Assembly: GCA_965237525.1 (NCBI GenBank)
Contig: CBDEFO010000007.1
Location: 288,001-352,000, forward strand
DNA from: Candidatus Latescibacterota bacterium
Lineage (GTDB): Bacteria; Latescibacterota; CBDEFO01
Direction: 5' to 3'
DNA: 64,000 nt
How positions within the stretch are numbered: position 1 is the stretch's first letter; each line of letters opens with the position of its first letter. The notes below the pieces were generated by a model, which ran no database searches, was not told where the DNA came from, and saw nothing but the letters and a program-made list of their open reading frames with translations. Positions 21,724 to 64,000 of the stretch are shown here, one piece after another. A program made the position numbers and the translations under genes.

Positions 21724-21789
21724 AGCGGTAGTACGGCGGAATCGTCAGAGATTTTAACTATACTACGACTCTTAAAAAGGGAGGGGATT

Positions 21790-22767: not shown

Positions 22768-22939
22768 GTGGCCGCAGGAGGAATTGACCTGGACGGTACT
22801 CCCAACAAGTTCTGGAACAAGCTCCGAAGTGGGTCGAAGAACTTTTGGGGGGAGGGGAAATTGGGGGTCTGGTAGAAGAAATTACGTGTAGAGGTTTCCT
22901 CAAAGCCACCCGGTTTATAATCGAAAAGGAGAGGGAATT

Positions 22940-23917: not shown

Positions 23918-24089
23918 GTGGACGCAGAATGAAATGAGATGGATGGGACTCCCAAGAAGTTCAAGAATAAGCCACGAAGTGGGTCGAAGAACTTTTGGGG
24001 GGAGGGGGAATTGGGGATCTGGTAGAAGATACTACGCGTAGAGGTTTCCTCAAAGCCACCCGGTTTATAATCGAAAAGGAGAGGGAATT

Positions 24090-47447: not shown

Positions 47448-47807
47448 CTACTGCCTTAAGTATCTTCTTAGCATATCCATCAGTTTTGAGTTTCCAAGAC
47501 TTTCGGCTATCTCGGCGTGCTTCCAGGCCAGGTCGTATTGTTCCTGGATGGCGTAGATTTCACCGAGGTTCTTGTGAGCTTTGGCATTTTTGGGATCGAT
47601 TTGAATAGCTTTCTTGTAGGACTCTATGGCCTCCTGAACTTTGCCCTGGCTGTAGTGGAGAATACCCAGGTTGTAGTGTCCCTCGGAAAATTCTGGGTAT
47701 GATTCGCCCACTTTTTTCTGCGCTTCTACAGCGTCGCTTACATCTTTGTCAAGCGCGAACTCAGAAAGCCACCGGAAGACACCCTTTTTTCTATGTGATC
47801 TATCCAC
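47448..47807 (-). CDS. Small TPR protein
   Basis: GHYNLG...EAIESYKKAIQIDP, AHKNLGEIY. Confidence 0.85.
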   Translation of the reverse strand: MDRSHRKKGVFRWLSEFALDKDVSDAVEAQKKVGESYPEFSEGHYNLGILHYSQGKVQEAIESYKKAIQIDPKNAKAHKNLGEIYAIQEQYDLAWKHAEIAESLGNSKLMDMLRRYLRQ

Positions 47808-48447
47808 TATATTCCTGGCCTCTTACTCCAAGGTTCAGGTCTCTGTGAAATATATCACGGGATTCAACAAAGAACCTGAAGTATTTTGCAGTCTCTTTCT
47901 GAATTGGATCTGAATTGATCTGAATTAATTCATCCTGAAATGGGTCCTGAAGTTTTAGATCGTCCGGAGTTCTCCTCTCTAAAGTGGAGGCGACAGAGGA
48001 AGACGCTCTCTGTTCTCGGTTGATTGCAGCCATCATTTCCTCTATATAACCTTCGAGTCTGATAACTTCTTCAGCCTTGAATTCTACAATTTCGTCAGCG
48101 TATCTGTTTAACTTTTCCAAAATCGCGTATAGTCGGTCGCAGGTGTGCTTGTATTCTTCGAAAAGCGGCACGTAGGCTCCGAAGTGCTCTTCTTCATATT
48201 GGTCTACTGTTATTTTGTCCCGGAATCTGTCGTTGAAGTGCTTCCAGCGGTCGAGGACTATGGGGGCTCTGTTTCGCGCTCTGTCAAGAGTTGATTCCCA
48301 GCCGAAGGCGCTCGCTCTGTCCACCTTTTCAAGTCGCTTGGCGAAGTCTCTTACCGTGTAGAGTTCCATAATAAATACATTTACGAAGGCATGCATACAG
48401 CCTAAATATTCTGTAAGGGATATTTTATGCTCTTGCCCTATGTCCAA
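47800..48447 (-). CDS. Hypothetical helical protein
   Basis: 215-aa ORF with GGAGG RBS, overlapping the TPR gene start. Confidence 0.7.
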   Translation of the reverse strand: MDIGQEHKISLTEYLGCMHAFVNVFIMELYTVRDFAKRLEKVDRASAFGWESTLDRARNRAPIVLDRWKHFNDRFRDKITVDQYEEEHFGAYVPLFEEYKHTCDRLYAILEKLNRYADEIVEFKAEEVIRLEGYIEEMMAAINREQRASSSVASTLERRTPDDLKLQDPFQDELIQINSDPIQKETAKYFRFFVESRDIFHRDLNLGVRGQEYSG

Positions 48448-48460
48448 AGTATTCCTCCGT

Positions 48461-49117
48461 TTAGAGTTCCCTGGGTTTGGAAAGACTCAATTTTAGCATC
48501 TCATCGTAGTCGAATAGGATAGCCTCAGCGATGGTCGTCACTTTGTTCGCGGGATTTAAAGCCTCGTTGACGCTTGTCTTGAGCTCCATCCAGTGTTCCC
48601 ATATTTCGGTCTGTCTTTCTATAAGTTCTTGGTCTTTGATCTCCCGTCCTGGTTCAAAGTTGAGTTCGCAGGCGTAGAGTCGTTCTGGGGTAGTCGGATC
48701 GTACAAGGGGATACCGTACTTGCGGCATATTAGCGGTCGTGATTCGTAGATGGAGCAGGCGTCGTTCACAAGGGCTGGGCAGGGGAGTCTGAGTCCGAGC
48801 GATGAGATCTCTTCACCGTTGTCTACAAGAAGCGCGCCGGATTCTTCGGCTCTTTGACGGATTAGGTCTTTTTTTTCACGCAGATAGATAGTTGCTCTTT
48901 CTTGCATCTTGTTGCGGGCAGAAGTATCTAATCTTTTGACAGCGCGCGAGACCAGGGCTGCGTCGATGAGCGTGATCCTGAACATCTGACTGCAGCAGGA
49001 TGAGCATCCTTTGCCACACAGTATCTGGTCCTGATAGATGCGAAGATTACGGTCAAACTCCTGTTCTACAAGACCTACGATGAATCTATATTTTTCAAAT
49101 ACTTCTTTTGTATTCAT
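48461..49117 (-). CDS. YkgJ-family (CxxxCxxCC) cysteine-cluster protein
   Basis: CGKGCSSCC, CPAL, CSIYESRPLICR. Confidence 0.88.
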   Translation of the reverse strand: MNTKEVFEKYRFIVGLVEQEFDRNLRIYQDQILCGKGCSSCCSQMFRITLIDAALVSRAVKRLDTSARNKMQERATIYLREKKDLIRQRAEESGALLVDNGEEISSLGLRLPCPALVNDACSIYESRPLICRKYGIPLYDPTTPERLYACELNFEPGREIKDQELIERQTEIWEHWMELKTSVNEALNPANKVTTIAEAILFDYDEMLKLSLSKPREL

Positions 49118-49278
49118 AAACTGAGTACCAAGGAAGGAATCTTCTATTTGTCAGAATTTACAATGAAAAATGCCGAAAGAACAAGCTTTCTTCCGGCACA
49201 AATTTGTAGGAGGCAGAGCCGTCTGTCTGCCTTGAGTTGCGCGGACACATGGGTACGCGCCTACTGTTTACTGCCTAT

Positions 49279-49755
49279 TTATTTTAAGGAAATATCGTGC
49301 AGTTCGCTATCCTTTTGCGGGTGATTCTGAGCTTCGGGGGTCTCGCTTCCGTCCAAAAGACCGTTCAGTGCCTCCAAAAGGGCATCTATATCGACTCCGT
49401 AGCCTTCAGCCGCGGGGCCCAGAACATGCTGTTCAGTGATGCTGCAGCTGGAACATCCGCCCAGATGAAAGTTGGACATAACTACTTCTGCGTTGGTATG
49501 GAGCCGTAAGGCTTCAGCGACGGTCATGTCTTTGTGAAATATGGCATCTCCGTTGAGCTTTCTGAACTCCTTCTTTATCATACTGCCCATCTGTTGCTTC
49601 ATATCTTCGCTGGAGACATTTACGTGCCTTCGAACACCATCTATAGAATCTTTTATAAATTCCAGCTCTTCTTTCAGCTTAGACGCGCCTCTCAGATTGA
49701 TCACGTAAAGTGTAAGAAGGACTGTCAAGCCTCCGTAAAGGACTACGCTTTCCAT
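49279..49755 (-). CDS. Membrane-anchored DUF1858-like CxxC protein
   Basis: N-terminal TM segment; KDMTVAEAL...GGCSSCS...AAEGYGVDIDALLEALN. Confidence 0.65.
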   Translation of the reverse strand: MESVVLYGGLTVLLTLYVINLRGASKLKEELEFIKDSIDGVRRHVNVSSEDMKQQMGSMIKKEFRKLNGDAIFHKDMTVAEALRLHTNAEVVMSNFHLGGCSSCSITEQHVLGPAAEGYGVDIDALLEALNGLLDGSETPEAQNHPQKDSELHDISLK

Positions 49756-49811
49756 AGTTGCACCACCTTTTTAGTCTGCTAGACAGGGGGCAAGGCGCCT
49801 GTCTACTTGGT

Positions 49812-50090
49812 CTAAGGTATATATTCTGCTAATTCGCTATCAACATCCTTAGGGTCTACTTCCTCACCGTTGTTGAGCCTTTCTATTATGCGTTCTATTA
49901 TCCTTTTGGCTTCTTCCTTTTTAAACTCTTTGATAAAGCCGTTGTAGAAGTGTTCGCCGGCCATGGCTCTGTTTATCTCTGTTTCTTTATCGTGATCGTC
50001 TAACTCCGTGTAATAGACGACGTCGTATCCTCTTTCGTGATACCCTCCCTCTTTGTAGATTTCGAACATGATCCTCTCAGATTCTAGCAT
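49812..50090 (-). CDS. Small hypothetical protein
   Basis: 92-aa ORF with AAGGAG RBS, directly downstream of the PlsA-like gene. Confidence 0.75.
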   Translation of the reverse strand: MLESERIMFEIYKEGGYHERGYDVVYYTELDDHDKETEINRAMAGEHFYNGFIKEFKKEEAKRIIERIIERLNNGEEVDPKDVDSELAEYIP

Positions 50091-50153
50091 ACTTCTACTC
50101 CTTATCAGATGCCGCTCAAGTTGAAAGCCTGAGCGACATCTTTTCTACAGATA

Positions 50154-53100
50154 CTATGCGGTTACGAGTTCTCCCTCTTTTTGGGTTACCTCGACTCCAT
50201 CGAGGGTTCCCTTTTCTGTCAATTCCCGTCTGAGTCGGTCTTCGAACTCTTTCAGCCTATCCTCGATCTTTGCCGTCTTCTCTTTTTCACGGACCATGTC
50301 CTCCATGTATCTCTTGAGGAAGTAATCGATTGTCTCAACCCTGATCTTGATAGATCCTGCGGGTTTATTTTCATCGATGTCCTTAAACGAAAAAGAGGGC
50401 GTTCCGGAGTCTTCGACGATCTCTTCTACTACTGTGTAGATAGGAGCGTCGTGTCCACATTTGAAGCTGGAGAGTTCTAAAGCGACCAGGTTGGGATGTC
50501 TGGCTGTAAATTTTGCTGCCCAGACCTTGCGGCTCGTGTTCTCGCTGTAGGAGTTCTTCCAGGCGTCGGAGATGTCCAACGGATGGGATATTATGCCCTG
50601 TTCAACCTCTTCTCCGAAGAGTTCCCAAAGGATGTCATCGTCTATGGGAAGTGAGTCCTCGGCGAAGACAGGATATCCGAGCTTTTGGAACTCCTCCATT
50701 ATTTCGTGATTTATTCCTGGATCGTTGTGGTATGGACGTCCCAGCAGGACTATACCGAGCTTGTCTTCGGCTTTGAGCATATCGAGGACTTCTCTTCCTT
50801 TGCCTCTCTGAACTACATTATTGAAGTGATCTAAAGCCTTGTAGCCCTCCTCGACAGCTCTTCTGTTCTCCTCTTTGGAGAGTCCGAACTTGGGTCCGAA
50901 CTCCTCGAACATCTGCTTCTGGAAGAGCTTGGGTTCGTCTATGGTGACGAACGTATCCAGGTATTCGATTCCCATTTTTTCGAAGAGGTTGCCCTCTTTG
51001 ATGAATGCGGCTTTGACCGCCTCAGGCGTGGTTGTGACTGTGGGACACGCTCTGCTGCTCTGTACGTTGACCAGATCGGTCGGGATGGAGTCTATCATGG
51101 GGAAGAAGATGTAATCCAGCGGCTTCTTCTTGTGATGCACGTACAGGAGGTTATGGACGTGCGGTATAGCTACCTTGCTGGGGAAGCAGGGGTCTATCGA
51201 GCCACGCTTTGCTCCCTCTTTGTACAGTTCCTGTGTGGTGAAATCCGAATAGACGAGGTTCCTGGGAGGGATTCCTATCGCCTCAAAGTATGCGCTAAAG
51301 AGAGGATTCTGGGAGTACATATTCAAAAGGCGGGGTATGCCTATTCTGATCTCCTGGCGCCTTTTCATCTTCCGGAGGTTCTCTTTGGCTTTCGACGTTA
51401 TGGCGTATTTGGGGATCGGGTCTGCCACTATTTCGGGTTTGTAGCTTTTCCAGACCTCTTTTGCGGCTACCTCGACGAGGTTGGGGTTTTGGGCTTTGGC
51501 TTCATCGAGTCCCTGCTTGATTCCCCGCATGTCCTCTATATCTTCGACGAGTCCCTTTTCACAGCTATTTCCCACGATGAGTCTCTTAAAGCCGGTCTCT
51601 ATGGGTACCTTGGATTTTTTGGATCCTGCGTCTTGGACCTCTTCGTCGCTGACCTTTACGTCTATGAATGTCCTGAGGCACTTGTTCTTGCAGAAGAAAC
51701 AGCGGGTGTTCTCGTCTCTGTGGGTCTGGTAAGTGATAGCTTCGACTGCATCCAGACCGATAAATGAAGTCTCTTTTCCGTTCTCCCACAGCCTTACAGC
51801 TTCAATGGCTGAGCCTATTGCTCCGCTCTCTCCGCAGTGCTCGTGGACGATAATTCTGGCTTTTTCCTGCTGGTCTTTGAACCTGGCCTCTATGAAGTCC
51901 ACCTGTGCCTTTACGGCAGCCAGGTTGTACTGTGTGCCGCCCTGAAGGACGAAGTTGGTTCCGAGCTTTGCCAGATTCGGTATCTGTGAGACGTAGAGCC
52001 AGATGTTTTTGGGGAGGACGTTGGCAAGCCCCGCCATTATCTCCTCGGGCTTCCAACCCTGTCTCTGGAAGTCAACTATGTCGGACTGCATGAAGACTGC
52101 GCAACCGTAGCCGAACATGGGCATAGACTCCGCGCCGAAGGCTATATCGGCAAAATCCTCGACGGTAAATCCGAAGCCTTCCGCAGTACCCTGGAGGAAA
52201 TAGCCGTTTCCTGCTGAGCACTGTGTGTTGAGCTTGAAGTCTTTGACCTGGCGGTTCTTGAGGATCATGATCTTGATGTCCTGTCCGCCTACATCGCAGA
52301 TGACGTCAACTTCATCGTAGAACCTGAGGGCGGCTTCAGTGTGTGCGACGGTTTCGACTAACGCTACGTCTGCGGCGACCGCATCTTTCAGGACGTCTTT
52401 TGCGTAACCTGTCGTGCCGACTCCCAGGACCTTTAGCGTTGCTCCCTGCTCCTCAACCTGCTCTCGTACCTTTCCTACGACCTCTATGGTGTCCTCGATG
52501 GGATTTCCCTTTGAAAGCTGGTAGGATTTGACAAGGACGTTTCTGTCCTTGTCCAAAAGGACAGCCTTTGTGGAGGTTGAGCCGCCGTCGATTCCGATGC
52601 AGCCTTCGACGACCTGTCCGGGGGAGAAGGTGGCAGGGATGAACTTTTTCGTCTTATATTTTTCCATGAAAGCCTCAAGTTCATCGGCAGTTTCGCTGAG
52701 TCCCTTTCCTCCCGCCTTCTGCTTCTCCTCAAGACGACCGACGTTCATGTAGTGCTCTAAGTCAGCTGTGCCTTTATAGACGCCTATTTCTGGTTCCTCC
52801 CCTTTTCCGAATTCGACTGCGCCTATGGCGGCGAAGTACTGGGCGTTTTCGGGGACTTTGATGAGGTCTTGAGGGTCTACACCCTCAGGCAGGGGGTAGT
52901 TTCTCTCCTCCCAGACTTTGGGTATGTTGTACTTCCAGGCTTCGGTCATACCTCTTATGAAGGTGTTGGGTCCACCAAGGAGCAGAACTTCTGGCCTTAG
53001 TGTGTTTCCTCTCGTTAAGACGCTTAAGTTTTGTCCTATGATGGCTTCAAAGAGGGACGCCATAATTTCATCTCGGGGAACGCCCGATTTTTGATGGCTG

Positions 53101-53663
53101 TTGACGTCTGTCTCGGCAAAGACGCCGCACTTTCCTGCGACAGGGTGGAGCTTGATGTCGAAGTATCCCTGGTCGCAGAGCTCCTCCGGCGGGATGCGCA
53201 GCTTCGCATTGATCTTGTCTATTACTGCCCCGGTTCCCCCTGCGCATTTGTCGTTCATGCTGGGGATCTTCCTCTTTCTGCCGGTCTCGGGGTCCTCCTG
53301 GAAGATGATGATCTTGGCATCCTGACCTCCGAGCTCTATGACCGATCCTACCTCAGGATGGAGCTTTTCGACGGCCAGGGATACAGCGTTGACTTCCTGG
53401 ACGAACTTTCCACCTATGTAGCCCGCAACCGAGTTACCGCCGCTCCCTGTTATAAAGATTCGATAATTCTCCGTAGGGAGTCCAAACTCGCCCTCTATTC
53501 GATCTAAGAACTCCATCACCTTTTCCGGCTGTCTGGTATCGTGCCGCTGGTAGTCCTTCAAGAGGATTTCGTCTGTGTCCGGGTTGACTACGATGAATTT
53601 TACGGTGGTGGATCCTACGTCCAGTCCGATCATCAAGCTATCTATAGTATTTTCCGCGCTCAT
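50154..53663 (-). CDS. PlsA/Ger-like protein: two BadF/BcrAD acyl-CoA activase ATPase domains plus a DUF2229-type reductase domain
   Basis: GLDVGSTT...ELGGQDAK...KCAGGTG...KCGVF; GIDGGSTS...DVGGQDIK...QCSAGNG...GCAVF; CFFCKNKC; CFPSK; GRPYH; FKCGHD. Confidence 0.85.
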   Translation of the reverse strand: MSAENTIDSLMIGLDVGSTTVKFIVVNPDTDEILLKDYQRHDTRQPEKVMEFLDRIEGEFGLPTENYRIFITGSGGNSVAGYIGGKFVQEVNAVSLAVEKLHPEVGSVIELGGQDAKIIIFQEDPETGRKRKIPSMNDKCAGGTGAVIDKINAKLRIPPEELCDQGYFDIKLHPVAGKCGVFAETDVNSHQKSGVPRDEIMASLFEAIIGQNLSVLTRGNTLRPEVLLLGGPNTFIRGMTEAWKYNIPKVWEERNYPLPEGVDPQDLIKVPENAQYFAAIGAVEFGKGEEPEIGVYKGTADLEHYMNVGRLEEKQKAGGKGLSETADELEAFMEKYKTKKFIPATFSPGQVVEGCIGIDGGSTSTKAVLLDKDRNVLVKSYQLSKGNPIEDTIEVVGKVREQVEEQGATLKVLGVGTTGYAKDVLKDAVAADVALVETVAHTEAALRFYDEVDVICDVGGQDIKIMILKNRQVKDFKLNTQCSAGNGYFLQGTAEGFGFTVEDFADIAFGAESMPMFGYGCAVFMQSDIVDFQRQGWKPEEIMAGLANVLPKNIWLYVSQIPNLAKLGTNFVLQGGTQYNLAAVKAQVDFIEARFKDQQEKARIIVHEHCGESGAIGSAIEAVRLWENGKETSFIGLDAVEAITYQTHRDENTRCFFCKNKCLRTFIDVKVSDEEVQDAGSKKSKVPIETGFKRLIVGNSCEKGLVEDIEDMRGIKQGLDEAKAQNPNLVEVAAKEVWKSYKPEIVADPIPKYAITSKAKENLRKMKRRQEIRIGIPRLLNMYSQNPLFSAYFEAIGIPPRNLVYSDFTTQELYKEGAKRGSIDPCFPSKVAIPHVHNLLYVHHKKKPLDYIFFPMIDSIPTDLVNVQSSRACPTVTTTPEAVKAAFIKEGNLFEKMGIEYLDTFVTIDEPKLFQKQMFEEFGPKFGLSKEENRRAVEEGYKALDHFNNVVQRGKGREVLDMLKAEDKLGIVLLGRPYHNDPGINHEIMEEFQKLGYPVFAEDSLPIDDDILWELFGEEVEQGIISHPLDISDAWKNSYSENTSRKVWAAKFTARHPNLVALELSSFKCGHDAPIYTVVEEIVEDSGTPSFSFKDIDENKPAGSIKIRVETIDYFLKRYMEDMVREKEKTAKIEDRLKEFEDRLRRELTEKGTLDGVEVTQKEGELVTA

Positions 53664-53760
53664 ATATATCCGCTCCTATGGGTATTTATAGCTAAACATA
53701 GCCAATCGTTTCAAGGAGGAGGAACCGGGGTTTTCCCCTGGCTCCTCCTGTAAGTTCTCC

Positions 53761-55536
53761 CTATGCGGCTTTGTTTGCGTCCTTTTTGCCTTCTTCTGCA
53801 TCCATGCGTTCTTTTATGTGCAGGACGAAGTTAGATGCAACGCTTACGAATCCTTTCTGATGAGGAACCTTGTACATAGGCCGCTTGAGTTCGGGGTGTC
53901 TTTCAACGTAGTCTTTGACGTCCGCTACTGCGAGCCCGGTCTTTTCGAGGGCTTCTTTGAACTCGTTCTTGGCCTTGATCTTCGCCTCTCCGAGTGCCAT
54001 TTGTACTCTGGAGTGGGCGTTAATCTCGCCTTCACCGGACGTCTCAACAGGGAGGTAGATCATGTCCTTGTACTGGGATGTGACTGCGGCTTGCGCGCCA
54101 TCGCTCTGAGTGCTGGGCATGCAGCCGAACGGCTTCATGGAGAGCACCATGTGACAGAGGTCTTTGTTGCTGTAGTAGATGTTCTTGGCGACCTCGAGGT
54201 GCCCTTCACCGCCTCCTGCTCTGGAGTTGTAGAAGGTGTGCCCGAGCCTCTGGAGCTCGTACTGGTCGGTGAGCCCGTGAGCTGTACCTCCCAGGGCTTC
54301 GCGGATCTTATCGTATTCTCTCTTAAAAATCTTCTCTGCAATTGAAAGGGTTCCCAATGTTTTCCTGTAGGCAAAAGCGTTGGAGAGGCGCCCCCGGAGA
54401 TTCCACCACTCGGGCGGCTCTTCGCCTTCCTTTATACCATTTCTGTCCACTGTCTCCTGCTTTGCCTGGTGAATCATGTACGTAATCCACGTCCCGATGG
54501 GCTCTACTAACACCTGAGCGTTTTCTCTTTCCAGGAAGCGGAACATGTTGAAGTTGCCGTCGCCCTCTGTGGTCTGCGCCCAAAACTCGCCCGTAATCTT
54601 GACTAGAGGCTTGACTCTGGTGCGGTCCACATCTATCTCATTGAGGCGATCTCTGACCTGTTCAAGGGCACTGATGTATTTGTCGCCGAATAGCTGCTCT
54701 AGAAATTTACCTAGATATAGAGATTTGTCGAAGACGCTGGGGAACTTTTTCAGAAAACTCCCAATTTTTCCTTCTAACTGTAAGGGTTTTTTGTTCTTTA
54801 TTACGTCATGCATATCGTCCATGCACTCCTTCATGACCCTTTCTGTTTCCCCTTCGTTCACCTCGTAGGGCCTAATCTCATAGCACACTTCATTTATTAG
54901 ATCGCCCATGTTAAGGGCGTTGAGTATTCCGAGGAAGAAGTCGAGGTTCATCTCAAGTCCGGCTTCGACCTCCGCCTGGTCGAGTCCGCCGGACTGCGAG
55001 AAGAGGAGGACTCTGAAGCCGTCGAAGCCTGAATTTCTAAGGGCGAGTCTATATTCGGCTTCGTACATTCCGAACCTGCATGGACCGCACGCCCCTGCGG
55101 TGAAGAAGACGTAGTCATCAATTATGTCTTTCCTGTCCATCCCCCCTTCCTCCAGCTTCTGGAGGTACTGGACGAGGTTGCCTACTGTGAAGTATGTGGG
55201 ATTGCACTGTCCGTTGTTGCCGTATTCCTTGCCGAGTTGGAAGGCCGCAACATCGGGGGTGGGAACGCTTTTGCACTTGTAGCCAAGGGATTCTAAGGCT
55301 CCGTGAATCAGGTGTTCGTGCTTCCAGGTGAGCCCGCCGAAGAGGATAGTCGTGTGATCTCTTTGATCGGCGGTGAAGGCGTTTTCTACGGGCTTTTCGA
55401 AGTGGTGTATATGCTTCTCTTCGATTCCTTCCTTCTCCATCAACCGCTTTCTTTCCTCTTCGAGCTTCTGCCGTATATCATCCTCGATTGAGGAGATCTC
55501 CAGAAGTCCGCCATTTACGATTGGCTGGGTCGCCAT
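53761..55536 (-). CDS. PlsR-like 2-hydroxyacyl-CoA dehydratase/reductase partner subunit
   Basis: QCNPTYF, GACGPCRFGMY, GGEG, PFGCMPS; directly upstream of the PlsA-like gene. Confidence 0.78.
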   Translation of the reverse strand: MATQPIVNGGLLEISSIEDDIRQKLEEERKRLMEKEGIEEKHIHHFEKPVENAFTADQRDHTTILFGGLTWKHEHLIHGALESLGYKCKSVPTPDVAAFQLGKEYGNNGQCNPTYFTVGNLVQYLQKLEEGGMDRKDIIDDYVFFTAGACGPCRFGMYEAEYRLALRNSGFDGFRVLLFSQSGGLDQAEVEAGLEMNLDFFLGILNALNMGDLINEVCYEIRPYEVNEGETERVMKECMDDMHDVIKNKKPLQLEGKIGSFLKKFPSVFDKSLYLGKFLEQLFGDKYISALEQVRDRLNEIDVDRTRVKPLVKITGEFWAQTTEGDGNFNMFRFLERENAQVLVEPIGTWITYMIHQAKQETVDRNGIKEGEEPPEWWNLRGRLSNAFAYRKTLGTLSIAEKIFKREYDKIREALGGTAHGLTDQYELQRLGHTFYNSRAGGGEGHLEVAKNIYYSNKDLCHMVLSMKPFGCMPSTQSDGAQAAVTSQYKDMIYLPVETSGEGEINAHSRVQMALGEAKIKAKNEFKEALEKTGLAVADVKDYVERHPELKRPMYKVPHQKGFVSVASNFVLHIKERMDAEEGKKDANKAA

Positions 55537-55549
55537 ATTGCACCTCTCT

Positions 55550-55616
55550 TCTCTATTAAGGTTGTCTACTGGTTGTCTACTGGTTGTCTACTGTTCTATT
55601 AAGGTTGTCTACTGTC
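55550..55616. repeat. Tandem GGTTGTCTACT units in the leader of the plsR-like gene
   Basis: CTATTAAGGTTGTCTACT GGTTGTCTACT GGTTGTCTACT GTT CTATTAAGGTTGTCTACT. Confidence 0.85.
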
Positions 55617-55643
55617 GTTTCTTGCTCTTTTTCTGCTACTATG

Positions 55644-56069
55644 TCAAAAATTTACTATCCCTTGTGAACCGTATTTTAGTGTCTCATCTACAATTGAGTT
55701 CAAATCGAGATTGTTTTTTGCATCGCTTCTGACTACGGCTGTGTATATCACTTCCTTAACAGTACCTATGATACAGGAGGATACGACATGGACATTGCAC
55801 TCCCTAACTATGCCCATCTCTATTCCCAGTTTTAGGGCAGAGGCTACCATCCCGTGGAGTTTATCATCGAATTCCTGCAACTTTCGGTTGAATTCTTCAT
55901 CTACTCCGCTTGCGTGGTCGAAGAGTATCTTGGTGAGTTCTCTGTTTGACGACAGGAACTCCATAATTATGAAAATGTTGTCTCTTAATTGTTGACGGGG
56001 TTCGGGAGCATGAGGTGAAAGATCTATTCTCTTTATTTTGCCTGAAATCTCGTCTAAGACATGGTCTAA
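55644..56069 (-). pseudogene. TetR/AcrR-family regulator lacking its N-terminal HTH, cut by an IS
   Basis: Frame stays open from the TTAG target site: LDHVLDEISGKIKRID...QLRDNIFIIMEFL...ELTKILF...GIEMGIVREC. Confidence 0.7.
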
Positions 56070-57588
56070 AAGCCTTGTGAAAAACCCTTAGATTCAGAAA
56101 ATAGTATAAAACAAGCATTGATAAAGCAGCTCCGATGTATTATATTATGTTATTGATAATATTATACATGGAGGAAACAATGACCCCACAAAAGCAGGAA
56201 CAGACAAATCCGATGTTTCACTATTTTCAGATGGAGGATTTAGTTCCCGAGGATCATATCCTTCGTCAGATTGATGAGGCAGTTGATTTTTCATTTGTAC
56301 GAGACGTTGTATCAGATTGTTATTGCCCTGACAATGGCAGACCCGGTATTGATCCTGAATTAGTTGTTCGAATGATCCTTATTGGCTATCTGTATAATTT
56401 GAGTGAGAATCGGCTCTGTCAGGAAGTGGGGATGCATGCGGCATATCGGTTGTTTTGTCATCAGACATTTGATGATGCGGTTCCGGATAGGAGCACGATC
56501 AACAAGCTTCGCAATCACAAGTGGGCATCCAGTGGGTTGTTTGAACGGATAATGCGTCAGGTAGTCCAGTGTTGCATAGATGTCGGTCTTGTGAGCGGTA
56601 AACACCTTAGTGTCGACGGCACTCAGATACAAGCTGATGCTTCAGTGAAAAGTATTGAGCCGATAGAACCCCCTGTTTCTCTTGATGATTATCTCAAGGG
56701 AATCGGTTTTGAAGGTGATAAGACAAAGGGTAGGTCCGGGCATCCTCAGGATAAAGACTTTCATGGTGAAAAGTGGACGAACCAAACACACCGTTCGACT
56801 ACAGACCCCGACGCGCGCTTATACAGCAAATCGAAGGGCAAAGGGGCTTTTCTCTCGTTTATGGGCCATGATCTGATCGACACAAAAAGCAGAGTAATCC
56901 TTGAGACTCAGGGCACGCAGGCGACAGGGACAGCAGAGCCCGAAAGTGCCCTTAAGATGGTAGATGACCTTGAAACATACACCATGCCCAAAGACATTCA
57001 GACACTTAGTGCCGATACCGGTTACGGTTCTGGTAATTTTATCGCTGATGTACTTGACCGGGGAATCATACCCCATATTCCTCTGCGAGCCGATGAGAAG
57101 ATTGAACCGATTCCTACATGGAAAAACAAGACAAATCCAGCACATATTCAGGCCGAACGGGATAGAAAAGTGCGAGAGGCGAAAGCCAGAAATCATGCAC
57201 GGTCTATCTCATTAACAGCTGACTACAAACTCTCCCGGAGACTCCGTAAACGCAGTGAACATATCTTTGCTGAAGCCAGGCAACAATACGGTATGGGACG
57301 AGCCCGTTACAGAGGACCAGCCTCACTGAATGAACAGTTGAATCTTGTTGCAACAGTACAGAATCTCAAGAGGCTTGTATCTTTCATAAGAAGGGGGAAA
57401 GCGTCTATGTGTGCCCTGTCTGTCAAAGACAGTGCATCCTGTTCTTCAAACAGCTCCTATTCCTTGCTGACCAGAACTCTGATAAGACTATTTTGCTTAT
57501 TCCACAGCAAAACGATACGATATGCTACTCTTTGACCCATAATCGGCGCTTCAGACGCTGCCTGGGACATAACTATTTCACAAGGCTT
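56070..57588 (+). mobile_element. IS1182-family insertion sequence, copy 1 (1519 bp)
   Basis: 13-bp terminal inverted repeat AAGCCTTGTGAAA/TTTCACAAGGCTT, flanked by CTAA direct repeats. Confidence 0.92.
56135..57535 (+). CDS. IS1182-family DDE transposase (likely start 56180)
   Basis: VPEDH, GRPGIDP, PDRSTI, VDGT, TDPDA, ADTGY, EHIFAE. Confidence 0.9.
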   Translation: MYYIMLLIILYMEETMTPQKQEQTNPMFHYFQMEDLVPEDHILRQIDEAVDFSFVRDVVSDCYCPDNGRPGIDPELVVRMILIGYLYNLSENRLCQEVGMHAAYRLFCHQTFDDAVPDRSTINKLRNHKWASSGLFERIMRQVVQCCIDVGLVSGKHLSVDGTQIQADASVKSIEPIEPPVSLDDYLKGIGFEGDKTKGRSGHPQDKDFHGEKWTNQTHRSTTDPDARLYSKSKGKGAFLSFMGHDLIDTKSRVILETQGTQATGTAEPESALKMVDDLETYTMPKDIQTLSADTGYGSGNFIADVLDRGIIPHIPLRADEKIEPIPTWKNKTNPAHIQAERDRKVREAKARNHARSISLTADYKLSRRLRKRSEHIFAEARQQYGMGRARYRGPASLNEQLNLVATVQNLKRLVSFIRRGKASMCALSVKDSASCSSNSSYSLLTRTLIRLFCLFHSKTIRYATL

Positions 57589-57796
57589 CTAATACGAGAC
57601 AAAAAAACTTCCGAAGTTATGTAGCTATTTTTGAATCTATGTCATACTCCACGGCTGTAAGACCTCACATAGTCTGCATCGCCGTTATTCGTATATCTGC
57701 TGGGGACCCGCGCGCCACGCGCCTTAAGTCGAGTCGTGCCGAGCCCCTTGACAGATTCTTAATTCAAGCGATAGCTTCCTCCAGTTCGAGTTCAGG

Positions 57797-59670
57797 TTAA
57801 CGTTTAGGTATCTCAATTTGAAGGAGGCTGTCTTTGTCAGTAGGGACTGCGCTAGTTATAGGAGAATCATATTCGGGCAGGGGTACATCCCTCATGTTGG
57901 CGTAGACCGGATGTCTGCCCTTTTCCTTGAACCAGTCGCGCGTGGTGGCGTTCATGAACATCTTCTCGATTATCTGCCTCCACCCAACGCCGGTGTTGTA
58001 AGCGCAGAAGGAAATTTCTCCCATCTGCGTGGCGTAGGGGATAATGCACATCTCTGTGCGGCGGAAGTCGTAGGTGAAGAGGTCCTGAAACCACATTCCG
58101 GCGATGAAGAGGATTAGCCACTCGTCCTCTTTTCTGTTTTCGTTGTCTTCTCCTCCGAGCTTGCCCCCAAGTGACCCCCCACTCTGTTTGTCAAACTTCT
58201 TCAGCAGGTCTCTGAGTTTGAAATTTCCGGGCGCTTTGTCGGGGTTGTAGTTTCTCAGAAGTGAAAGGGCAATCTGGAATTTGGTTAGCGCCGGGCCTCT
58301 GTTTGTGTCGGTCATGACTTTTATGTCTTCAAAGAAGCGTTCGACGTTTATGACCTGGGGGAGCGGGGCCCACTCTTTTGTATTCTCTTGTTGACCAGAA
58401 GAGCGGTCGAGATACCGCAGTTGGGATGGCATCCGCACTTCATCGTGCCCCAGTCTGATCCCGCTCCTTTTATTAGGTCTGTCAGATCTGCAATTGCTCC
58501 TGCGGCTGAGATGGGGAACCAGTCCCTCAAGGGCTCGGTGATGCCTGTCTGCGTCTTGGCGTCGTGCGCAAGGTGAGACAGCGTGTATCTTTGTCTTTCT
58601 CTCAGTTCGTCTGTGATGTCTTCGTCTCTTCCCGTGAAAGATACTGGCTGAAAGGCGATAAAGCTGATCTTGTTGGCGTTTTCGACTGCAAAGTCTATAA
58701 CAGGTCCGACCTGGTCGTCGTTGATCGTGTTGACTATAGTAACCACCAGCACGACATCTATTCCAGCTTTGTAAAGGTTTTCGATTGCCCTTAATTTAAC
58801 GTCGAAAAGATTGCTGATTTTTCTGTGGGCGTGGTTCTTGTTTCCCACGCCGTCGAACTGGAGGTAGGCGATCCTCAATCCCGCATCTCTGGCCTTCTCG
58901 GCAAATCCTGGCTCCTGTGCAAAGCGTATTCCGTTTGTAGCAGCCTGTATGCTGAAGTAGCCTATCTCTTCGGCGTAGGCTACTGATTCCAGGAAAATGG
59001 GCGAGATGGTGGGTTCCCCGCCTGAGAACTGGATGGACATTTGCCTTTTGGGCTTAATAGTAAGTGAGTCGTCTAATATCTTTTTTATCTCATCAAACGT
59101 CAGTTCGTGGACGTAGCCGACCTGGTTTGCGTCCATAAAGCAGGGATCGCACATCATATTGCAGCGGTTGGTCAGGTCAACGGTAAGGACAGAGCCTCTG
59201 CCGTACTGGATGGAGGATGTGCCATGGTTGTGAAGGGTATCTGTGATCGCTTTGAAGTCCCTGCCTGGATAGAGCCTTTCGATGCGATCGAAGAATTTGG
59301 GGTCTATGGATATTGTGTCCGTGAAGAGCCCGTGCTTAGGACAGGTCTTCTCCATTACTATCTTGCCGTCCTTTTGGAGGATACTAGCTTTGATCTCTCC
59401 GGGGTGCCCTTCAGTCAGGAGGCTCAAGTCCTCCTCGCCGGAGAGTATCTTTTCCCTTACCTCTTTGACGCACTTGGGACAGAGAGAGTCCGTCTCTCTT
59501 GGCCAACCTAATTTGGGTCTGGAACGTTCCTTGCTCTTCATAAGGGGCTGGGGTGCCCACTTTGGCTGAACAGGATTACCAGGCTTAATTCTATTGAAGG
59601 TCTGAAAGATAGTCCACGTCACTGCTGCTGTTCTGGTAAGCGCAAATTCTAAGGCTTTGGTAGTGTTCAT
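57797..59670 (-). pseudogene. Tetraether synthase (Tes/GDGT-MAS, MJ0619)-like radical SAM protein, split by a frameshift near 58385
   Basis: SLCPKC...KTCPKHG, DLTNRCNMMCDPCF, QFSGGEPT, YLQFDG, FQPVSFTGR, GCHPNCG, MWFQD, MCIIPYAT...SFCAYN. Confidence 0.78.
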
Positions 59671-59941
59671 GTGTTCTCCCCCAAATTTGAAGAACTTCTC
59701 TTTACCTTTTTAAGGTTTCCCTACTCTTATGAAACTGATCAGGCTCAAGTCCGTTGCTTTCACTGCTAATAGTTGCTATTTCCATTTGGTGCGTGTACTT
59801 GTCTTATCCGTCACGCTCGCGATAATTATACCTGTTTGTAGAGACAGAACAAAAGTATTTTCACTTAACAGGCGTTTTACACGTCTTTTCGGTCAGAATG
59901 TAGGCTGAATGGTTCGGCATAGTAAAGTTATTGATATTTAG

Positions 59942-61460
59942 AAGCCTTGTGAAATAGTTATGTCCCAGGCAGCGTCTGAAGCGCCGATTATGGGTCAAAG
60001 AGTAGCATATCGTATCGTTTTGCTGTGGAATAAGCAAAATAGTCTTATCAGAGTTCTGGTCAGCAAGGAACAGGAGCTGTTTGAAGAACAGGATGCACTG
60101 TCTTTGACAGACAGGGCACACATAGACGCTTTCCCCCTTCTTATGAAAGATACAAGCCTCTTGAGATTCTGTACTGTTGCAACAAGATTCAACTGTTCAT
60201 TCAGTGAGGCTGGTCCTCTATAACGGGCTCGTCCCATACCGTGTTGTTGCCTGGCTTCAGCAAAGATATGTTCACTGCGTTTACGGAGTCTCCGGGAGAG
60301 TTTGTAGTCAGCTGTTAATGAGATAGACCGTGCATGATTTCTGGCTTTCGCCTCTCGCACTTTTCTATCCCGTTCGGCCTGAATATGTGCTGGATTTGTC
60401 TTGTTTTTCCATGTAGGAATCGGTTCAATCTTCTCATCGGCTCGCAGAGGAATATGGGGTATGATTCCCCGGTCAAGTACATCAGCGATAAAATTACCAG
60501 AACCGTAACCGGTATCGGCACTAAGTGTCTGAATGTCTTTGGGCATGGTGTATGTTTCAAGGTCATCTACCATCTTAAGGGCACTTTCGGGCTCTGCTGT
60601 CCCTGTCGCCTGCGTGCCCTGAGTCTCAAGGATTACTCTGCTTTTTGTGTCGATCAGATCATGGCCCATAAACGAGAGAAAAGCCCCTTTGCCCTTCGAT
60701 TTGCTGTATAAGCGCGCGTCGGGGTCTGTAGTCGAACGGTGTGTTTGGTTCGTCCACTTTTCACCATGAAAGTCTTTATCCTGAGGATGCCCGGACCTAC
60801 CCTTTGTCTTATCACCTTCAAAACCGATTCCCTTGAGATAATCATCAAGAGAAACAGGGGGTTCTATCGGCTCAATACTTTTCACTGAAGCATCAGCTTG
60901 TATCTGAGTGCCGTCGACACTAAGGTGTTTACCGCTCACAAGACCGACATCTATGCAACACTGGACTACCTGACGCATTATCCGTTCAAACAACCCACTG
61001 GATGCCCACTTGTGATTGCGAAGCTTGTTGATCGTGCTCCTATCCGGAACCGCATCATCAAATGTCTGATGACAAAACAACCGATATGCCGCATGCATCC
61101 CCACTTCCTGACAGAGCCGATTCTCACTCAAATTATACAGATAGCCAATAAGGATCATTCGAACAACTAATTCAGGATCAATACCGGGTCTGCCATTGTC
61201 AGGGCAATAACAATCTGATACAACGTCTCGTACAAATGAAAAATCAACTGCCTCATCAATCTGACGAAGGATATGATCCTCGGGAACTAAATCCTCCATC
61301 TGAAAATAGTGAAACATCGGATTTGTCTGTTCCTGCTTTTGTGGGGTCATTGTTTCCTCCATGTATAATATTATCAATAACATAATATAATACATCGGAG
61401 CTGCTTTATCAATGCTTGTTCTATACTACTTTCTGAATCTAAGGGTTTTTCACAAGGCTT
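59942..61460 (-). mobile_element. IS1182-family insertion sequence, copy 2 (1519 bp)
   Basis: Same terminal repeats; TTAG at 59938-59941 and 61461-61464. Confidence 0.92.
59995..61395 (-). CDS. IS1182-family transposase
   Basis: Two amino-acid differences from copy 1 (QQHG, SSCS). Confidence 0.9.
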   Translation of the reverse strand: MYYIMLLIILYMEETMTPQKQEQTNPMFHYFQMEDLVPEDHILRQIDEAVDFSFVRDVVSDCYCPDNGRPGIDPELVVRMILIGYLYNLSENRLCQEVGMHAAYRLFCHQTFDDAVPDRSTINKLRNHKWASSGLFERIMRQVVQCCIDVGLVSGKHLSVDGTQIQADASVKSIEPIEPPVSLDDYLKGIGFEGDKTKGRSGHPQDKDFHGEKWTNQTHRSTTDPDARLYSKSKGKGAFLSFMGHDLIDTKSRVILETQGTQATGTAEPESALKMVDDLETYTMPKDIQTLSADTGYGSGNFIADVLDRGIIPHIPLRADEKIEPIPTWKNKTNPAHIQAERDRKVREAKARNHARSISLTADYKLSRRLRKRSEHIFAEARQQHGMGRARYRGPASLNEQLNLVATVQNLKRLVSFIRRGKASMCALSVKDSASCSSNSSCSLLTRTLIRLFCLFHSKTIRYATL

Positions 61461-61488
61461 TTAGTGTCTTATGCTCTTAAACTTTTGC

Positions 61489-61517
61489 TTGACTTTGCAT
61501 CGCCATAGTGTTATACT
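61489..61517 (+). promoter_or_regulatory. Near-consensus sigma70 promoter with extended -10
   Basis: TTGACT-17 bp-TATACT, with TG at 61509-61510. Confidence 0.7.
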
Positions 61518-61526
61518 ATTAGCCTG

Positions 61527-61634
61527 TGTGTCTGTCCCTGAATAGCTACTCTAGAAATTTACCTATATGTCGAAGGCGATGGGGAACTTTTTCAGAAAAA
61601 CTCCCAATTTTGCCTTCTAACTGGAAGGGTTTTT
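61527..61634 (+). repeat. Degenerate copy of 54675-54791 (internal to the plsR-like gene)
   Basis: GAATAGCT.CTCTAGAAATTTACCTA...TGTCGAAG.CG.TGGGGAACTTTTTCAGAAAA(A)CTCCCAATTTT.CCTTCTAACTG.AAGGGTTTTT is shared. Confidence 0.88.
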
Positions 61635-61704
61635 AGAATCACCGTATCGATACTTCTTGTCCTTAAGTAAGGAGATACTTGATGTGTTTTTTGATAGGTA
61701 TTAG

Positions 61705-63224
61705 AAGCCTTGTGAAATAGTTATGTCCCATGGCAGCGTCTGAAGCGCCGATTATGGGTCAAAGAGTAGCATATCGTATCGTTTTGCTGTGGAATAAGCA
61801 AAATAGTCTTATCAGAGTTCTGGTCAGCAAGGAACAGGAGCTGTTTGAAGAACAGGATGCACTGTCTTTGACAGACAGGGCACACATAGACGCTTTCCCC
61901 CTTCTTATGAAAGATACAAGCCTCTTGAGATTCTGTACTGTTGCAACAAGATTCAACTGTTCATTCAGTGAGGCTAGTTCTCTGTAACGGGCTCGTCCCA
62001 TACCGTGTTGTTGCCTGGCTTCAGCAAAGATATGTTCACTGCGTTTACGGAGTCTCCGGGAGAGTTTGTAGTCAGCTGTTAATGAGATAGACCGTGCATG
62101 ATTTCTGGCTTTCGCCTCTCGCACTTTTCTATCCCGTTCGGCCTGAATATGTGCTGGATTTGTCTTGTTTTTCCATGTAGGAATCGGTTCAATCTTCTCA
62201 TCGGCTCGCAGAGGAATATGGGGTATGATTCCCCGGTCAAGTACATCAGCGATAAAATTACCAGAACCGTAACCGGTATCGGCACTAAGTGTCTGAATGT
62301 CTTTGGGCATGGTGTATGTTTCAAGGTCATCTACCATCTTAAGGGCACTTTCGGGCTCTGCTGTCCCTGTCGCCTGCGTGCCCTGAGTCTCAAGGATTAC
62401 TCTGCTTTTTGTGTCGATCAGATCATGGCCCATAAACGAGAGAAAAGCCCCTTTGCCCTTCGATTTGCTGTATAAGCGCGCGTCGGGGTCTGTAGTCGAA
62501 CGGTGTGTTTGGTTCGTCCACTTTTCACCATGAAAGTCTTTATCCTGAGGATGCCCGGACCTACCCTTTGTCTTATCACCTTCAAAACCGATTCCCTTGA
62601 GATAATCATCAAGAGAAAAAGGGGGTTCTATCGGCTCAATACTTTTCACTGAAGCATCAGCTTGTATCTGAGTGCCGTCGACACTAAGGTGTTTACCGCT
62701 CACAACACCGACATCTATGCAACACTGGACTACCTGACGCATTATCCGTTCAAACAACCCACTGGATGCCCACTTGTGATTGCGAAGCTTGTTGATCGTG
62801 CTCCTATCCGGAACCGCATCATCAAATGTCTGATGACAAAACAACCGATATGCCGCATGCATCCCCACTTCCTGACAGAGCCGATTCTCACTCAAATTAT
62901 ACAGATAGCCAATAAGGATCATTCGAACAACTAATTCAGGATCAATACCGGGTCTGCCATTGTCAGGGCAATAACAATCTGATACAACGTCTCGTACAAA
63001 TGAAAAATCAACTGCCTCATCAATCTGACGAAGGATATGATCCTCGGGAACTAAATCCTCCATCTGAAAATAGTGAAACATCGGATTTGTCTGTTCCTGC
63101 TTTTGTGGGGTCATTGTTTCCTCCATGTATAATATTATCAATAACATAATATAATACGTCGGAGCTGCTTTATCAATGCTTGTTCTATACTACTTTCTGA
63201 ATCTAAGGGTTTTTCACAAGGCTT
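61705..63224 (-). mobile_element. IS1182-family insertion sequence, copy 3 (1520 bp)
   Basis: Same terminal repeats; TTAG at 61701-61704 and 63225-63228. Confidence 0.92.
61759..63147 (-). CDS. IS1182-family transposase
   Basis: A few substitutions relative to copies 1 and 2 (GVVSG, PPFS, RYRELAS). Confidence 0.9.
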   Translation of the reverse strand: MLLIILYMEETMTPQKQEQTNPMFHYFQMEDLVPEDHILRQIDEAVDFSFVRDVVSDCYCPDNGRPGIDPELVVRMILIGYLYNLSENRLCQEVGMHAAYRLFCHQTFDDAVPDRSTINKLRNHKWASSGLFERIMRQVVQCCIDVGVVSGKHLSVDGTQIQADASVKSIEPIEPPFSLDDYLKGIGFEGDKTKGRSGHPQDKDFHGEKWTNQTHRSTTDPDARLYSKSKGKGAFLSFMGHDLIDTKSRVILETQGTQATGTAEPESALKMVDDLETYTMPKDIQTLSADTGYGSGNFIADVLDRGIIPHIPLRADEKIEPIPTWKNKTNPAHIQAERDRKVREAKARNHARSISLTADYKLSRRLRKRSEHIFAEARQQHGMGRARYRELASLNEQLNLVATVQNLKRLVSFIRRGKASMCALSVKDSASCSSNSSCSLLTRTLIRLFCLFHSKTIRYATL

Positions 63225-63258
63225 TTAGTAAGGATTTTAGATAAAGGATTGCAGAAAA

Positions 63259-64000
63259 ATGCCCAATATACTGCTGGTCTATCCAGAAAACCCTATTACG
63301 TTTTGGAGCTTTTCTGAATCTTTGAAGCTGCTGGGGAAAAAAGCGGCTCAGCCCCCGTTAGGATTATTGGGGGTGGCTGCGCTGCTGCCCGAAGGGTATA
63401 ATCCAAGACTGATCGATATGAATGTTGAACCGCTCACGGACGAAGCGATTGAAGGAGCGGACGCGGTTTTATGTTCTTCGATGATAATTCATCAAGAGTC
63501 TGTAAGGGAAATAATTGACAGGTGTAATCGTCTGGAAACTCCTATCATGTTGGGTGGACCGTATCCGACCCAGTACCACGATTTGATAGAGGGCAACGCT
63601 ACTTTTTTCTTAGGCGAGGCGGAAAATGGGTTTGCCGATGCCCTGGAGGAGATGTTGTACTCACCTGGGGAGATCAAAAGGAGCGTAATAGATACGAAAG
63701 GCCAGTTCCGAAGTTTAGAGGAGGTTCCACTCCCGAGGTACGATCTACTTGATTTATCCGATTATGTTGGAATGATTATTCAACTTACCCGCGGCTGTCC
63801 TGAAAAATGTACTTTTTGCGACATCCCGGGACTCTATGGAAGGACGACCCGACTGAAGACAGAGGAGTTGGTTATCCGAGAAATGGACTACCTTTATGAG
63901 TTGGGATGGCGTGGATCTGTTATGTTTGCCGACGATAATTTCGTGGGTAATCAGGAGGAAGTTTTGATGAAGTTAGAAAAAATCATCCCCTGGCAAAAAG
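63259..64000 (+). CDS. Edge-truncated B12-binding-domain radical SAM protein (HpnP/DUF4070-like)
   Basis: Manual translation (absent from the ORF track): MPNILLVYPENPITFWSF...QPPLGLLGVAALLP...IDMNV...GGPYPT...GEAE...PRYDLL...RGCPEKCTFCDI...FADDNFVGN. Confidence 0.88.
   Translation, partial: MPNILLVYPENPITFWSFSESLKLLGKKAAQPPLGLLGVAALLPEGYNPRLIDMNVEPLTDEAIEGADAVLCSSMIIHQESVREIIDRCNRLETPIMLGGPYPTQYHDLIEGNATFFLGEAENGFADALEEMLYSPGEIKRSVIDTKGQFRSLEEVPLPRYDLLDLSDYVGMIIQLTRGCPEKCTFCDIPGLYGRTTRLKTEELVIREMDYLYELGWRGSVMFADDNFVGNQEEVLMKLEKIIPWQK

Follow-up and report, generated by a model that had tools for sequence, protein, structure and literature searches.

The window examined here is a stretch of 64,000 nucleotides (G000:C7:288001-352000) from the genome of a Candidatus Latescibacterota bacterium (G000; 4.58 Mb in 8 contigs, 96.6% complete), and its end holds a putative ether-lipid cluster made up of a plsR-plsA pair, a tes-like radical S-adenosylmethionine (SAM) gene, a remnant of tetR and several small genes, interspersed with copies of an insertion sequence (IS). 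The first-pass annotation of this DNA had described the tes-like gene, the TetR remnant, the PlsR/PlsA-like pair and five small genes, all on the minus strand, and all of them are present, but it did not notice that the tes-like gene is frameshifted. The divergent B12-binding radical SAM gene that it reported is there as well, on the plus strand from 63259, and extends past the window to a length of 593 amino acids (aa). The principal features are the following.

49812..50090, minus strand: 92-aa protein, recurrent partner of plsR and plsA, no family match
50154..53663, minus strand: PlsA/Ger-like ATP-dependent Fe-S reductase, 1169 aa (PF01869 twice and PF09989; TIGR00241 above cut-off)
53761..55536, minus strand: PlsR-like partner with a putative 2-hydroxyacyl-CoA-dehydratase fold, 591 aa (weak fold matches; beside plsA)
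55644..56069, minus strand: TetR remnant, the C-terminal 141 codons (TetR_C_24), truncated at IS copy 1
56070..57588, plus strand: IS1182-like copy 1 (NF033551, 262 bits), with a rearranged junction
57797..59670, minus strand: Tes/GDGT-MAS-like radical SAM gene, long bacterial form, frameshifted (assigned by fold and motifs; intact copy elsewhere)
59671..59937, minus strand: tes leader, whose homologue lies directly upstream of plsR in the congener G001 (83-91% identity)
59942..61460, minus strand: IS1182-like copy 2, a clean insertion with matching 4-bp flanks (target duplication) and an empty site in G001
61465..61700, no strand: old intergenic DNA with a decayed plsR fragment of about 110 bp, duplicated at two further sites along with IS flanks
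61705..63224, minus strand: IS1182-like copy 3, a clean insertion upstream of the B12 gene at a distance of 34 bp, with matching 4-bp flanks and an empty site in G001
63259..64000 and past the window end, plus strand: B12-binding radical SAM protein with DUF4070, 593 aa (PF02310, PF04055, PF13282)
G000:C7:353088-354581 (L001:3088-4581), just beyond the window, minus strand: second B12 radical SAM protein, 497 aa, convergent with the 593-aa gene

The 1169-aa protein combines two BadF/BcrAD activator domains with DUF2229 (PF09989), the layout of Ger and PlsA, which bears out the earlier description of this pair. According to the available text of PMC13159169, this layout is kept in all alkyl-ether producers, and the accessible part of PMC10087280 draws it for Acid_0922, the PlsA homologue of Solibacter usitatus, a producer of brGDGTs (branched glycerol dialkyl glycerol tetraethers). 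Ger and PlsA, and with them alkyl and vinyl ether formation, are described as indistinguishable by sequence in the available portion of PMC13274423. For the PlsR-like partner, no Pfam family matched significantly, PF06050 not even up to E 1, and a sequence search of the PDB gave no match; the best PDB matches of its structural model (pLDDT 81) are weak (E 4e-4 to 6e-3) and all of the dehydratase type, namely DCCP, 2-hydroxyisocaproyl-CoA dehydratase (HadBC) and benzoyl-CoA reductase subunits. Cysteines C111 and C153 of this protein are invariant, and C150 and C472 nearly so. Across 80 metagenome loci chosen among 576 relatives, plsA adjoins plsR in 67, and in G001, a congener whose closed genome is 98% complete and IS-free at this locus, plsA is intact at 95%; plsR and the small genes are intact there too.

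Since acyl-CoA dehydratase activases and subunits of benzoyl-CoA reductase make up the family matches, the pair might also be thought to have no part in membrane lipids and to serve catabolism, as an acyl-CoA dehydratase or reductase and the activator that goes with it. We consider this very unlikely, as the fused two-activator and DUF2229 layout is that of Ger and PlsA, with older annotations reading “dehydratase activator-related”, and no CoA-transferase was recognised by eye among the commonest neighbour clusters of the 80 loci. The ElbD-type reductase domain PF07993 found no match in G000 or G001 and is present in 126 of the 153 genomes that form our host-phylum set; thus, PlsRA may be the sole ether route of these two genomes. 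Co-occurrence of ElbD-type reductases with tes was rejected as evidence, because 23 of 25 relatives barely exceeds that background. In the relative G043, PF07993 occurs in what was judged by eye to be an elb-like gene row (L270:5204-12716).

The tes-like gene of the window is broken by a 2-nt insertion at codon 429, which leaves frames of 440 and 213 aa, and an intact 623-aa copy exists at G000:C4:36938-38809, between two IS copies and in a segment that is 99.9% identical. This IS-tes-IS segment (G000:C4:35148-40536, L002) has no target duplication in its outer flanks, and its right flank repeats 825 bp found on contig C8; the C4 copy is probably the duplicate. A structural model was available for P0001, a protein that differs from the C4 copy by two residues, and its top fold match is GDGT-MAS (7TOM; E 1.6e-37, TM score 0.85 by target), the next fold following at E 5e-10. 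The best PDB sequence match is also GDGT-MAS (E 1e-66, 30% identity). The rubredoxin site CxxC...CxxH is kept (C64, C67, C110 and H113; PF23545), and so is the radical SAM motif CxxxCxxC (C170, C174 and C177), which is invariant in 55 sequences. In the C-terminal part, M525 (equivalent to Met439) is invariant and Y545 (equivalent to Tyr459) nearly so, while C418, C541 and C555 are invariant and align with cysteines of 7TOL; together with M525, these three are the predicted ligands of a C-terminal auxiliary cluster.

As the junctions of this region run through near-identical IS copies, the first-pass annotation had warned that the adjacency of its genes could be rearranged or mis-assembled. The near-identity was confirmed. 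The IS1182-like element is present in 134 full-length copies in G000, three of them in the locus. Matching 4-bp flanks occur at 102 of the 134 copies, against 42 expected by random pairing, and 32 copies have unmatched flanks, so that IS-linked rearrangement in this genome is common yet not the rule. A clean insertion of copy 1, suggested by its own matching 4-bp flanks, was dropped because the contigs of other strains show a rearranged junction there: those of three other runs continue beyond 56069 into non-IS DNA, and 30 letters of one of them prolong the tetR frame as TetR-like sequence. No contig bridges the copy 1 junction, and none of the contigs listed spans any IS.

The worry about an artefact is nevertheless largely lifted by G001 and by contigs from other runs. 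The gene order of G001 is the same on both sides of the locus without any IS here, and its DNA matching the stretch upstream of tes in the window continues without a break into the final bases of tetR and then the leader of plsR. In two other runs, tes and most of its leader stand on single contigs. As the leader is continuous with tes in these runs and with plsR in G001, tes is part of the DNA preceding plsR, irrespective of the events at IS copy 1, and the cluster is older than its IS copies. The same continuity led us to discard the view that a composite transposon had recently brought tes here. Additionally, the tes, plsR, plsA and dnaB members of two other assemblies report identical contig sizes (761,982 and 67,567 bases), from which we infer that the four genes share one contig in each.

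That the cluster was made by IS rearrangement or mis-assembly would be in keeping with the many IS copies and their unmatched flanks, with the loss of the TetR N-terminus at the copy 1 junction, and with an IS-flanked tes duplicate elsewhere in a genome whose IS copies no listed contig spans. Set against the empty sites and the leader-plsR continuity of G001, the single contigs carrying tes with its leader and the shared contig sizes, such an origin is extremely improbable; mis-assembly of the cluster is unlikely, and as its source it was rejected on these grounds. The native adjacency of the neighbouring genes is thus supported by the gene order of G001, but synteny of tes, plsAR, the 92-aa gene and the B12 radical SAM gene was not found in IS-free relatives.

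Two observations concern the DNA between these genes. The spacer at 61465-61700 in the window (240 bp) has been copied between IS pairs to G000:C3:405219-405456 and G000:C8:1482277-1482514. The plsR leader contains a short tandem repeat tract (55540-55620) of strain-dependent length, 10-21 bases shorter in the contig of one run and also shorter in G001.

The divergent 593-aa B12 enzyme, which is HpnP-like and SwfC-like, had been placed in the same unit as tes. Its B12, radical SAM and DUF4070 domains form the layout that, in the available part of PMC10697835, is common to HpnP and to uncharacterised HpnP-like clades, but no squalene cyclase (PF13243) was found in G000 or G001, and a PDB sequence search gave a single weak match. 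Membership in a tes unit did not hold up: the gene occurs in 73 of the 153 phylum genomes regardless of tes, including all 31 members of one family, of which 2 carry tes, and at 8 loci whose short flanks were examined tes did not appear. It also stands divergent from plsR in G001. The gene is a native neighbour without sign of dependence on tes. Its paralogues (37-39% identity) lie beside a large polyketide synthase (PKS) gene and a reductase gene, and the enzyme itself probably methylates lipid chains in general in this lineage instead of being a dedicated part. In the relatives' loci L268:7406-18708 and L269:9240-17999, a PKS gene, a DUF4070-type B12 radical SAM gene and a reductase gene follow one another in a swf-like row.

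The 497-aa gene is a better candidate methylase, because it tracks tes and is broken in the tes-less G001. Of the 153 genomes, 11 contain a close homologue (E below 1e-200), and ten of these have the long tes form; the sole exception is G001, where the gene is frameshifted twice (2 of 25 compared genes are split in that genome). No more than about 300 bp separate it from tes in both G076 and G077, the distance in G067 is 2.3 kb, and in G010 canonical tes is followed by a 43% homologue. Its best family matches, BchE and HpnJ, are far under their cut-offs. Homologues of 40% identity stand directly before an AhbD-related radical SAM/SPASM gene in L251:6368-9229 and L252:4408-7241. Either a TIGR03960-family gene or the 593-aa gene had been considered as a possible Mss, and both were rejected since the supplements list the TIGR03960 protein under another accession and no such domain for Mss. 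G000 does encode a TIGR03960-family radical SAM protein above cut-off (G000:C8:1893661-1895430, L227), and none was found in G001.

Taken together, these genes are best read as an ether-lipid cluster whose intact Tes-like enzyme would make membrane-spanning ether lipids, a reading to which we assign a probability of about 0.5, with the tes branch likely being lost. Gene content, order and breaks are observed, and all of the chemistry is modelled on PlsAR/Ger, GDGT-MAS and Gmm. In a first step, the two ATP-driven activator domains of PlsA would push low-potential electrons into the DUF2229 and dehydratase-fold domains of PlsA and PlsR, as in the chemistry of these families, turning a glycerol ester into an alkyl or vinyl ether anaerobically. 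The Tes-like enzyme would then, by analogy with GDGT-MAS, use a 5′-deoxyadenosyl radical to take a hydrogen from the end of a lipid tail, and the tail radical would be parked on the C-terminal auxiliary cluster until a second radical forms the C-C bond. The electron supply would differ from that of GDGT-MAS because the N-terminal auxiliary cluster is missing (see below), and the redox-type 158-aa and 218-aa neighbours are candidates for it. In the third and weakest step, the 497-aa B12 radical SAM enzyme would probably methylate or cyclise the Tes product. This product may be a brGDGT, and the fullest version of the idea, a compact and sufficient route to methylated branched tetraethers in which PlsRA forms the ethers, the long Tes is the bacterial brGDGT synthase and the 497-aa enzyme adds methyls or rings, is one that we regard as improbable.

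The small genes named as possible electron carriers belong to the downstream end of the run, together with a hairpin.

47448..47807, minus strand: TPR protein, 119 aa (Pfam TPR_1, E 1e-17)
47800..48447, minus strand: 215-aa protein, no Pfam or NCBIfam match
48461..49117, minus strand: CxxCxxCC putative zinc- or iron-chelating protein, 218 aa (PF03692, E 1.6e-6)
49170..49199, minus strand: terminator-like 12-bp hairpin with a T tail (pattern scan)
49279..49755, minus strand: 158-aa protein with a hybrid-cluster-associated redox disulfide domain (TIGR03980, 48.5 bits against a cut-off of 44.95)

The hairpin may divide the gene run, and the 158-aa protein has a hydrophobic N-terminal stretch, as seen in its hydropathy. 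The 92-aa gene lies downstream of plsRA in 16 of the 80 metagenome loci, in G095 and G096, and in five of six further genome loci. Several metagenome loci likewise have a homologue of the 119-aa protein downstream of plsRA, the best ones being in L145 and L260; in these same two loci, a 218-aa homologue occupies the same position as here and a 215-aa homologue follows plsRA. The latter protein has homologues in 5 of the 153 phylum genomes, and in G043, G044 and G045, which are from a single family and so are not independent observations, tes, a 158-aa homologue and a 215-aa homologue are contiguous in that order. Atlas searches for the 92-aa and 215-aa proteins gave no usable family.

A considerable body of evidence weighs against the tetraether-type reading, and it concerns the pairing of tes with plsRA, the nature of the Tes form, its decay and the behaviour of the 497-aa gene. 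Regarding the pairing, tes adjoins plsRA in only 2 of the 80 plsR loci (flanks of at least 4.5 kb downstream in 34 and at least 4 kb upstream in 35) and in none of the 80 nearest tes loci, taken from 7 of the 64 parts of the species collection and with 5 kb on either side in 44; plsA, plsR and the 92-aa gene are all missing from those 80. Within the host phylum, plsR is found in 7 and a tes-like gene in 27 of the 153 genomes, and both solely in G000; six plsR-bearing relatives thus have no tes, and none of five tes-bearing relatives tested has a PlsA match. Among 221 Acidobacteriota genomes, 129 have a tes-like gene (a count that takes in the three unpublished genomes G302, G185 and G208) and 11 have this plsR. 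Ten of these 11 also have a tes-like gene, but never on the same contig among the matches listed, most assemblies being fragmented. The three chemistries named by the first-pass annotation are thus not supported as a conserved unit: tes, plsAR, the 92-aa gene and a B12 radical SAM gene occur together in no other locus examined, and the pairing of tes with plsRA is only weakly conserved.

From these data, one may suspect that PlsR, PlsA and the 92-aa protein are a self-contained, TetR-controlled ether or plasmalogen operon, and that the Tes-like gene moved in and serves another lipid pool, with no tetraether being formed. An operon of tetR, plsR, plsA and the 92-aa gene without tes does exist in G095 and G096, where a full 199-aa TetR, 34% identical to the remnant, precedes plsR (the N-terminal DNA-binding half that the remnant lacks was not found anywhere in G000); plsRA is intact in the tes-less G001; tes was not seen in 78 of the 80 plsR loci, within the flanking DNA available; and relatives with tes lack PlsA. 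By contrast, plsR, plsA, the 92-aa gene and tes stand on one strand in two unrelated metagenome contigs (L118 and L132, one of which adds a canonical Tes), in a different order that points to independent re-pairing, and small genes are common to both neighbourhoods, 158-aa and 215-aa genes following tes in G043-G045 and downstream small genes following plsRA in L145 and L260. We therefore consider a separate operon rather unlikely, while giving it serious weight.

The membrane-spanning reading is also challenged by the Tes-like protein itself. The stretch aligned with the ligands of the N-terminal auxiliary [4Fe-4S] cluster (C73, C77 and C80) is free of cysteines, and this motif is missing in 31 of 31 long-form proteins, whereas both canonical paralogues have the extra CxxxCxxC. 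The intact copy scores 326.9 bits with the Tes family NF045702, below the cut-off of 450, and, according to the available portions of PMC11868695 and PMC8941075, activity is confirmed for none of the bacterial Tes homologues. Thus, the description of this gene as a Tes-like radical SAM enzyme stands as regards the GDGT-MAS fold and most catalytic-site residues, but not as regards family score or the N-terminal cluster; judged by its sequence, the protein is Tes-like in anatomy and outside the canonical Tes family.

Without the N-terminal cluster, the long form could accordingly leave lipid tails uncoupled and act on some hydrophobic substrate by another kind of radical chemistry. The bacterial paralogues with the N-terminal motif, from L118 and G010, do exceed the cut-off that the long form misses (595 and 578 bits); the two forms are neighbours in L118, G297 and G378, as would suit a division of tasks; and a quick tree of bacterial sequences separates the two forms by a long branch. 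In GDGT-MAS, however, the coupling cluster is the C-terminal one, whose predicted ligands, Met and Tyr are kept here, and the fold match covers the whole length, so that we hold a different reaction to be quite improbable. The canonical and long forms stand close together at L118:6581-10339, L253:5990-15480 and L254:6255-13491, and in L118 the Tes pair comes directly after plsR, plsA and the 92-aa gene, a cleaner locus than that of the window.

The state of the tes gene across strains is a further difficulty. The insertion at codon 429 is missing from the contigs of three runs and might stem from faulty assembly or else represent a rare allele. Other breaks lie at codon 172 (two proteins), codon 506 (a contig of an RNA run) and codon 572 (the contig of one run and one protein), and intact versions are found in the contigs of two runs, in the C4 copy and in P0001. 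With four distinct frameshift sites among strains and no copy in G001, tes appears dispensable; the most economical interpretation is that selection on the tes branch has relaxed in this IS-rich symbiont. In three runs, the contigs were about 1.5 times as deep over tes as over its flanks, a ratio that gives no copy number and was given no weight.

As for the remaining points, 16 of 26 long-tes genomes are without a close homologue of the 497-aa gene, this gene is unlinked to tes in the G043-G048 genomes, and its breaks in G001 could be read errors. Finally, Tes homologues are reported in only 3 of 14 acidobacteria that produce iso-diabolic acid (PMC13159169, in its available part).

The named homologues nearest to the Tes-like and 497-aa proteins come from Candidatus Latescibacteria (78% and 62%) and Handelsmanbacteria (75%), labels that agree with the FCB-like host lineage proposed earlier. 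Near-identical pieces of plsA, plsR and tes are present in one run recorded as a sponge metatranscriptome, which indicates that the organism is sponge-associated; the RNA contigs cover parts of the three genes and are no measure of transcription. A promoter scan of the region performed near chance level (28 found, 19.8 expected). Elsewhere in the window, a 325-aa gene is present in three tandem 1150-bp copies at 21774-25067 (87-91% identity across the 300 nt compared), a 183-bp repeat forms two tandem units, 98% identical, inside a 675-aa gene at 16483-16848, and a 484-aa probable membrane or exported protein without Pfam match and with a weak NCBIfam match, ImpL63, overlaps the end of dnaB at 45302-46756.

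The pathway idea is already in print: PlsAR, Tes and GrsA/B acting in a diether-condensation route to brGDGTs have been hypothesised for S. usitatus (PMC10087280, as far as its accessible text goes). Likewise, the available part of PMC11214058 describes bacterial gms genes that cluster with tes or mss, and the accessible text of a 2026 preprint (10.64898/2026.06.23.733905) reports Ger-like matches in Latescibacterota metagenome-assembled genomes from sponges and tes in Acidobacteriota only. A literature search mostly outside subscription journals found no paper on a tes-plsRA operon or on a brGDGT methylase. What is new here is the host, a B12 candidate that follows tes and a natural series of tes loss.

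The enzymes that synthesise and methylate bacterial branched tetraethers are unproven, even though climate research makes wide use of these lipids as proxies. The locus yields a short list of candidates (plsR, plsA, the 92-aa gene, the intact tes-like gene and two B12 radical SAM genes) and singles out one specific B12 family as following tes. According to the available text of the same preprint, alkyl ethers occur in sponges together with C30-C31 membrane-spanning monoethers, and the organism is a candidate source of sponge membrane-spanning ether lipids outside Acidobacteriota and Poribacteria. If the proposal were true, the 497-aa enzyme would add the extra methyls or rings that underlie brGDGT palaeotemperature proxies, and strains without tes and the 497-aa gene would be natural knockouts. 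The importance of this particular locus is limited, since the tes-plsRA pairing is cleaner in other genomes, this copy is decaying and the host is uncultured.

Compared with known systems, the PlsRA pair shares with Ger (Tmari_0479 of T. maritima) and with PlsA/PlsR of Clostridium perfringens the two PF01869 domains, PF09989 and a partner with a putative dehydratase fold. It differs from them in that the locus is split, with plsR upstream of plsA, that PlsR has no PF06050 match and that a 92-aa partner is conserved. The archaeal Tes/GDGT-MAS (MJ0619, 7TOL/7TOM) and the protein described here have in common the whole-length fold, the rubredoxin and SAM motifs, the C-terminal cysteines and the Met and Tyr residues, whereas the latter is about 55 residues longer at its N-terminus, lacks the ligands of the N-terminal auxiliary [4Fe-4S] cluster and falls in a clade of its own among bacteria, one that is common in Acidobacteriota as well as in Myxococcota. 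Among the B12 enzymes, all three domains of the 593-aa protein are those of HpnP-like proteins and SwfC, and its paralogues match the swf layout (PMC3908369, in the part available), but the gene itself has no adjoining PKS and G000 and G001 have no squalene cyclase match. The 497-aa gene resembles gmm of the gmm-gms pair, described in the accessible text of PMC11214058, in being a B12 radical SAM gene clustered with a tail-joining radical SAM gene, and its 40% homologues in G013 and G018 precede an AhbD-related radical SAM gene, from the group against which Gms is rooted; its likeness to Gmm, the glycerol monoalkyl glycerol tetraether (GMGT) methylase, and to the ring synthases GrsA and GrsB is one of neighbourhood. 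The nearest parallel in pathway is that of S. usitatus, where the route involves the same enzyme classes and the same order of chemistry as proposed here, and where the split plsR/plsA arrangement resembles that drawn for Acid_0921/0922 in the available part of PMC10087280. In that species, the genes named there (Acid_0921/0922, Acid_5929, Acid_2410 and Acid_5783) are far apart, whereas here they lie within about 17 kb.

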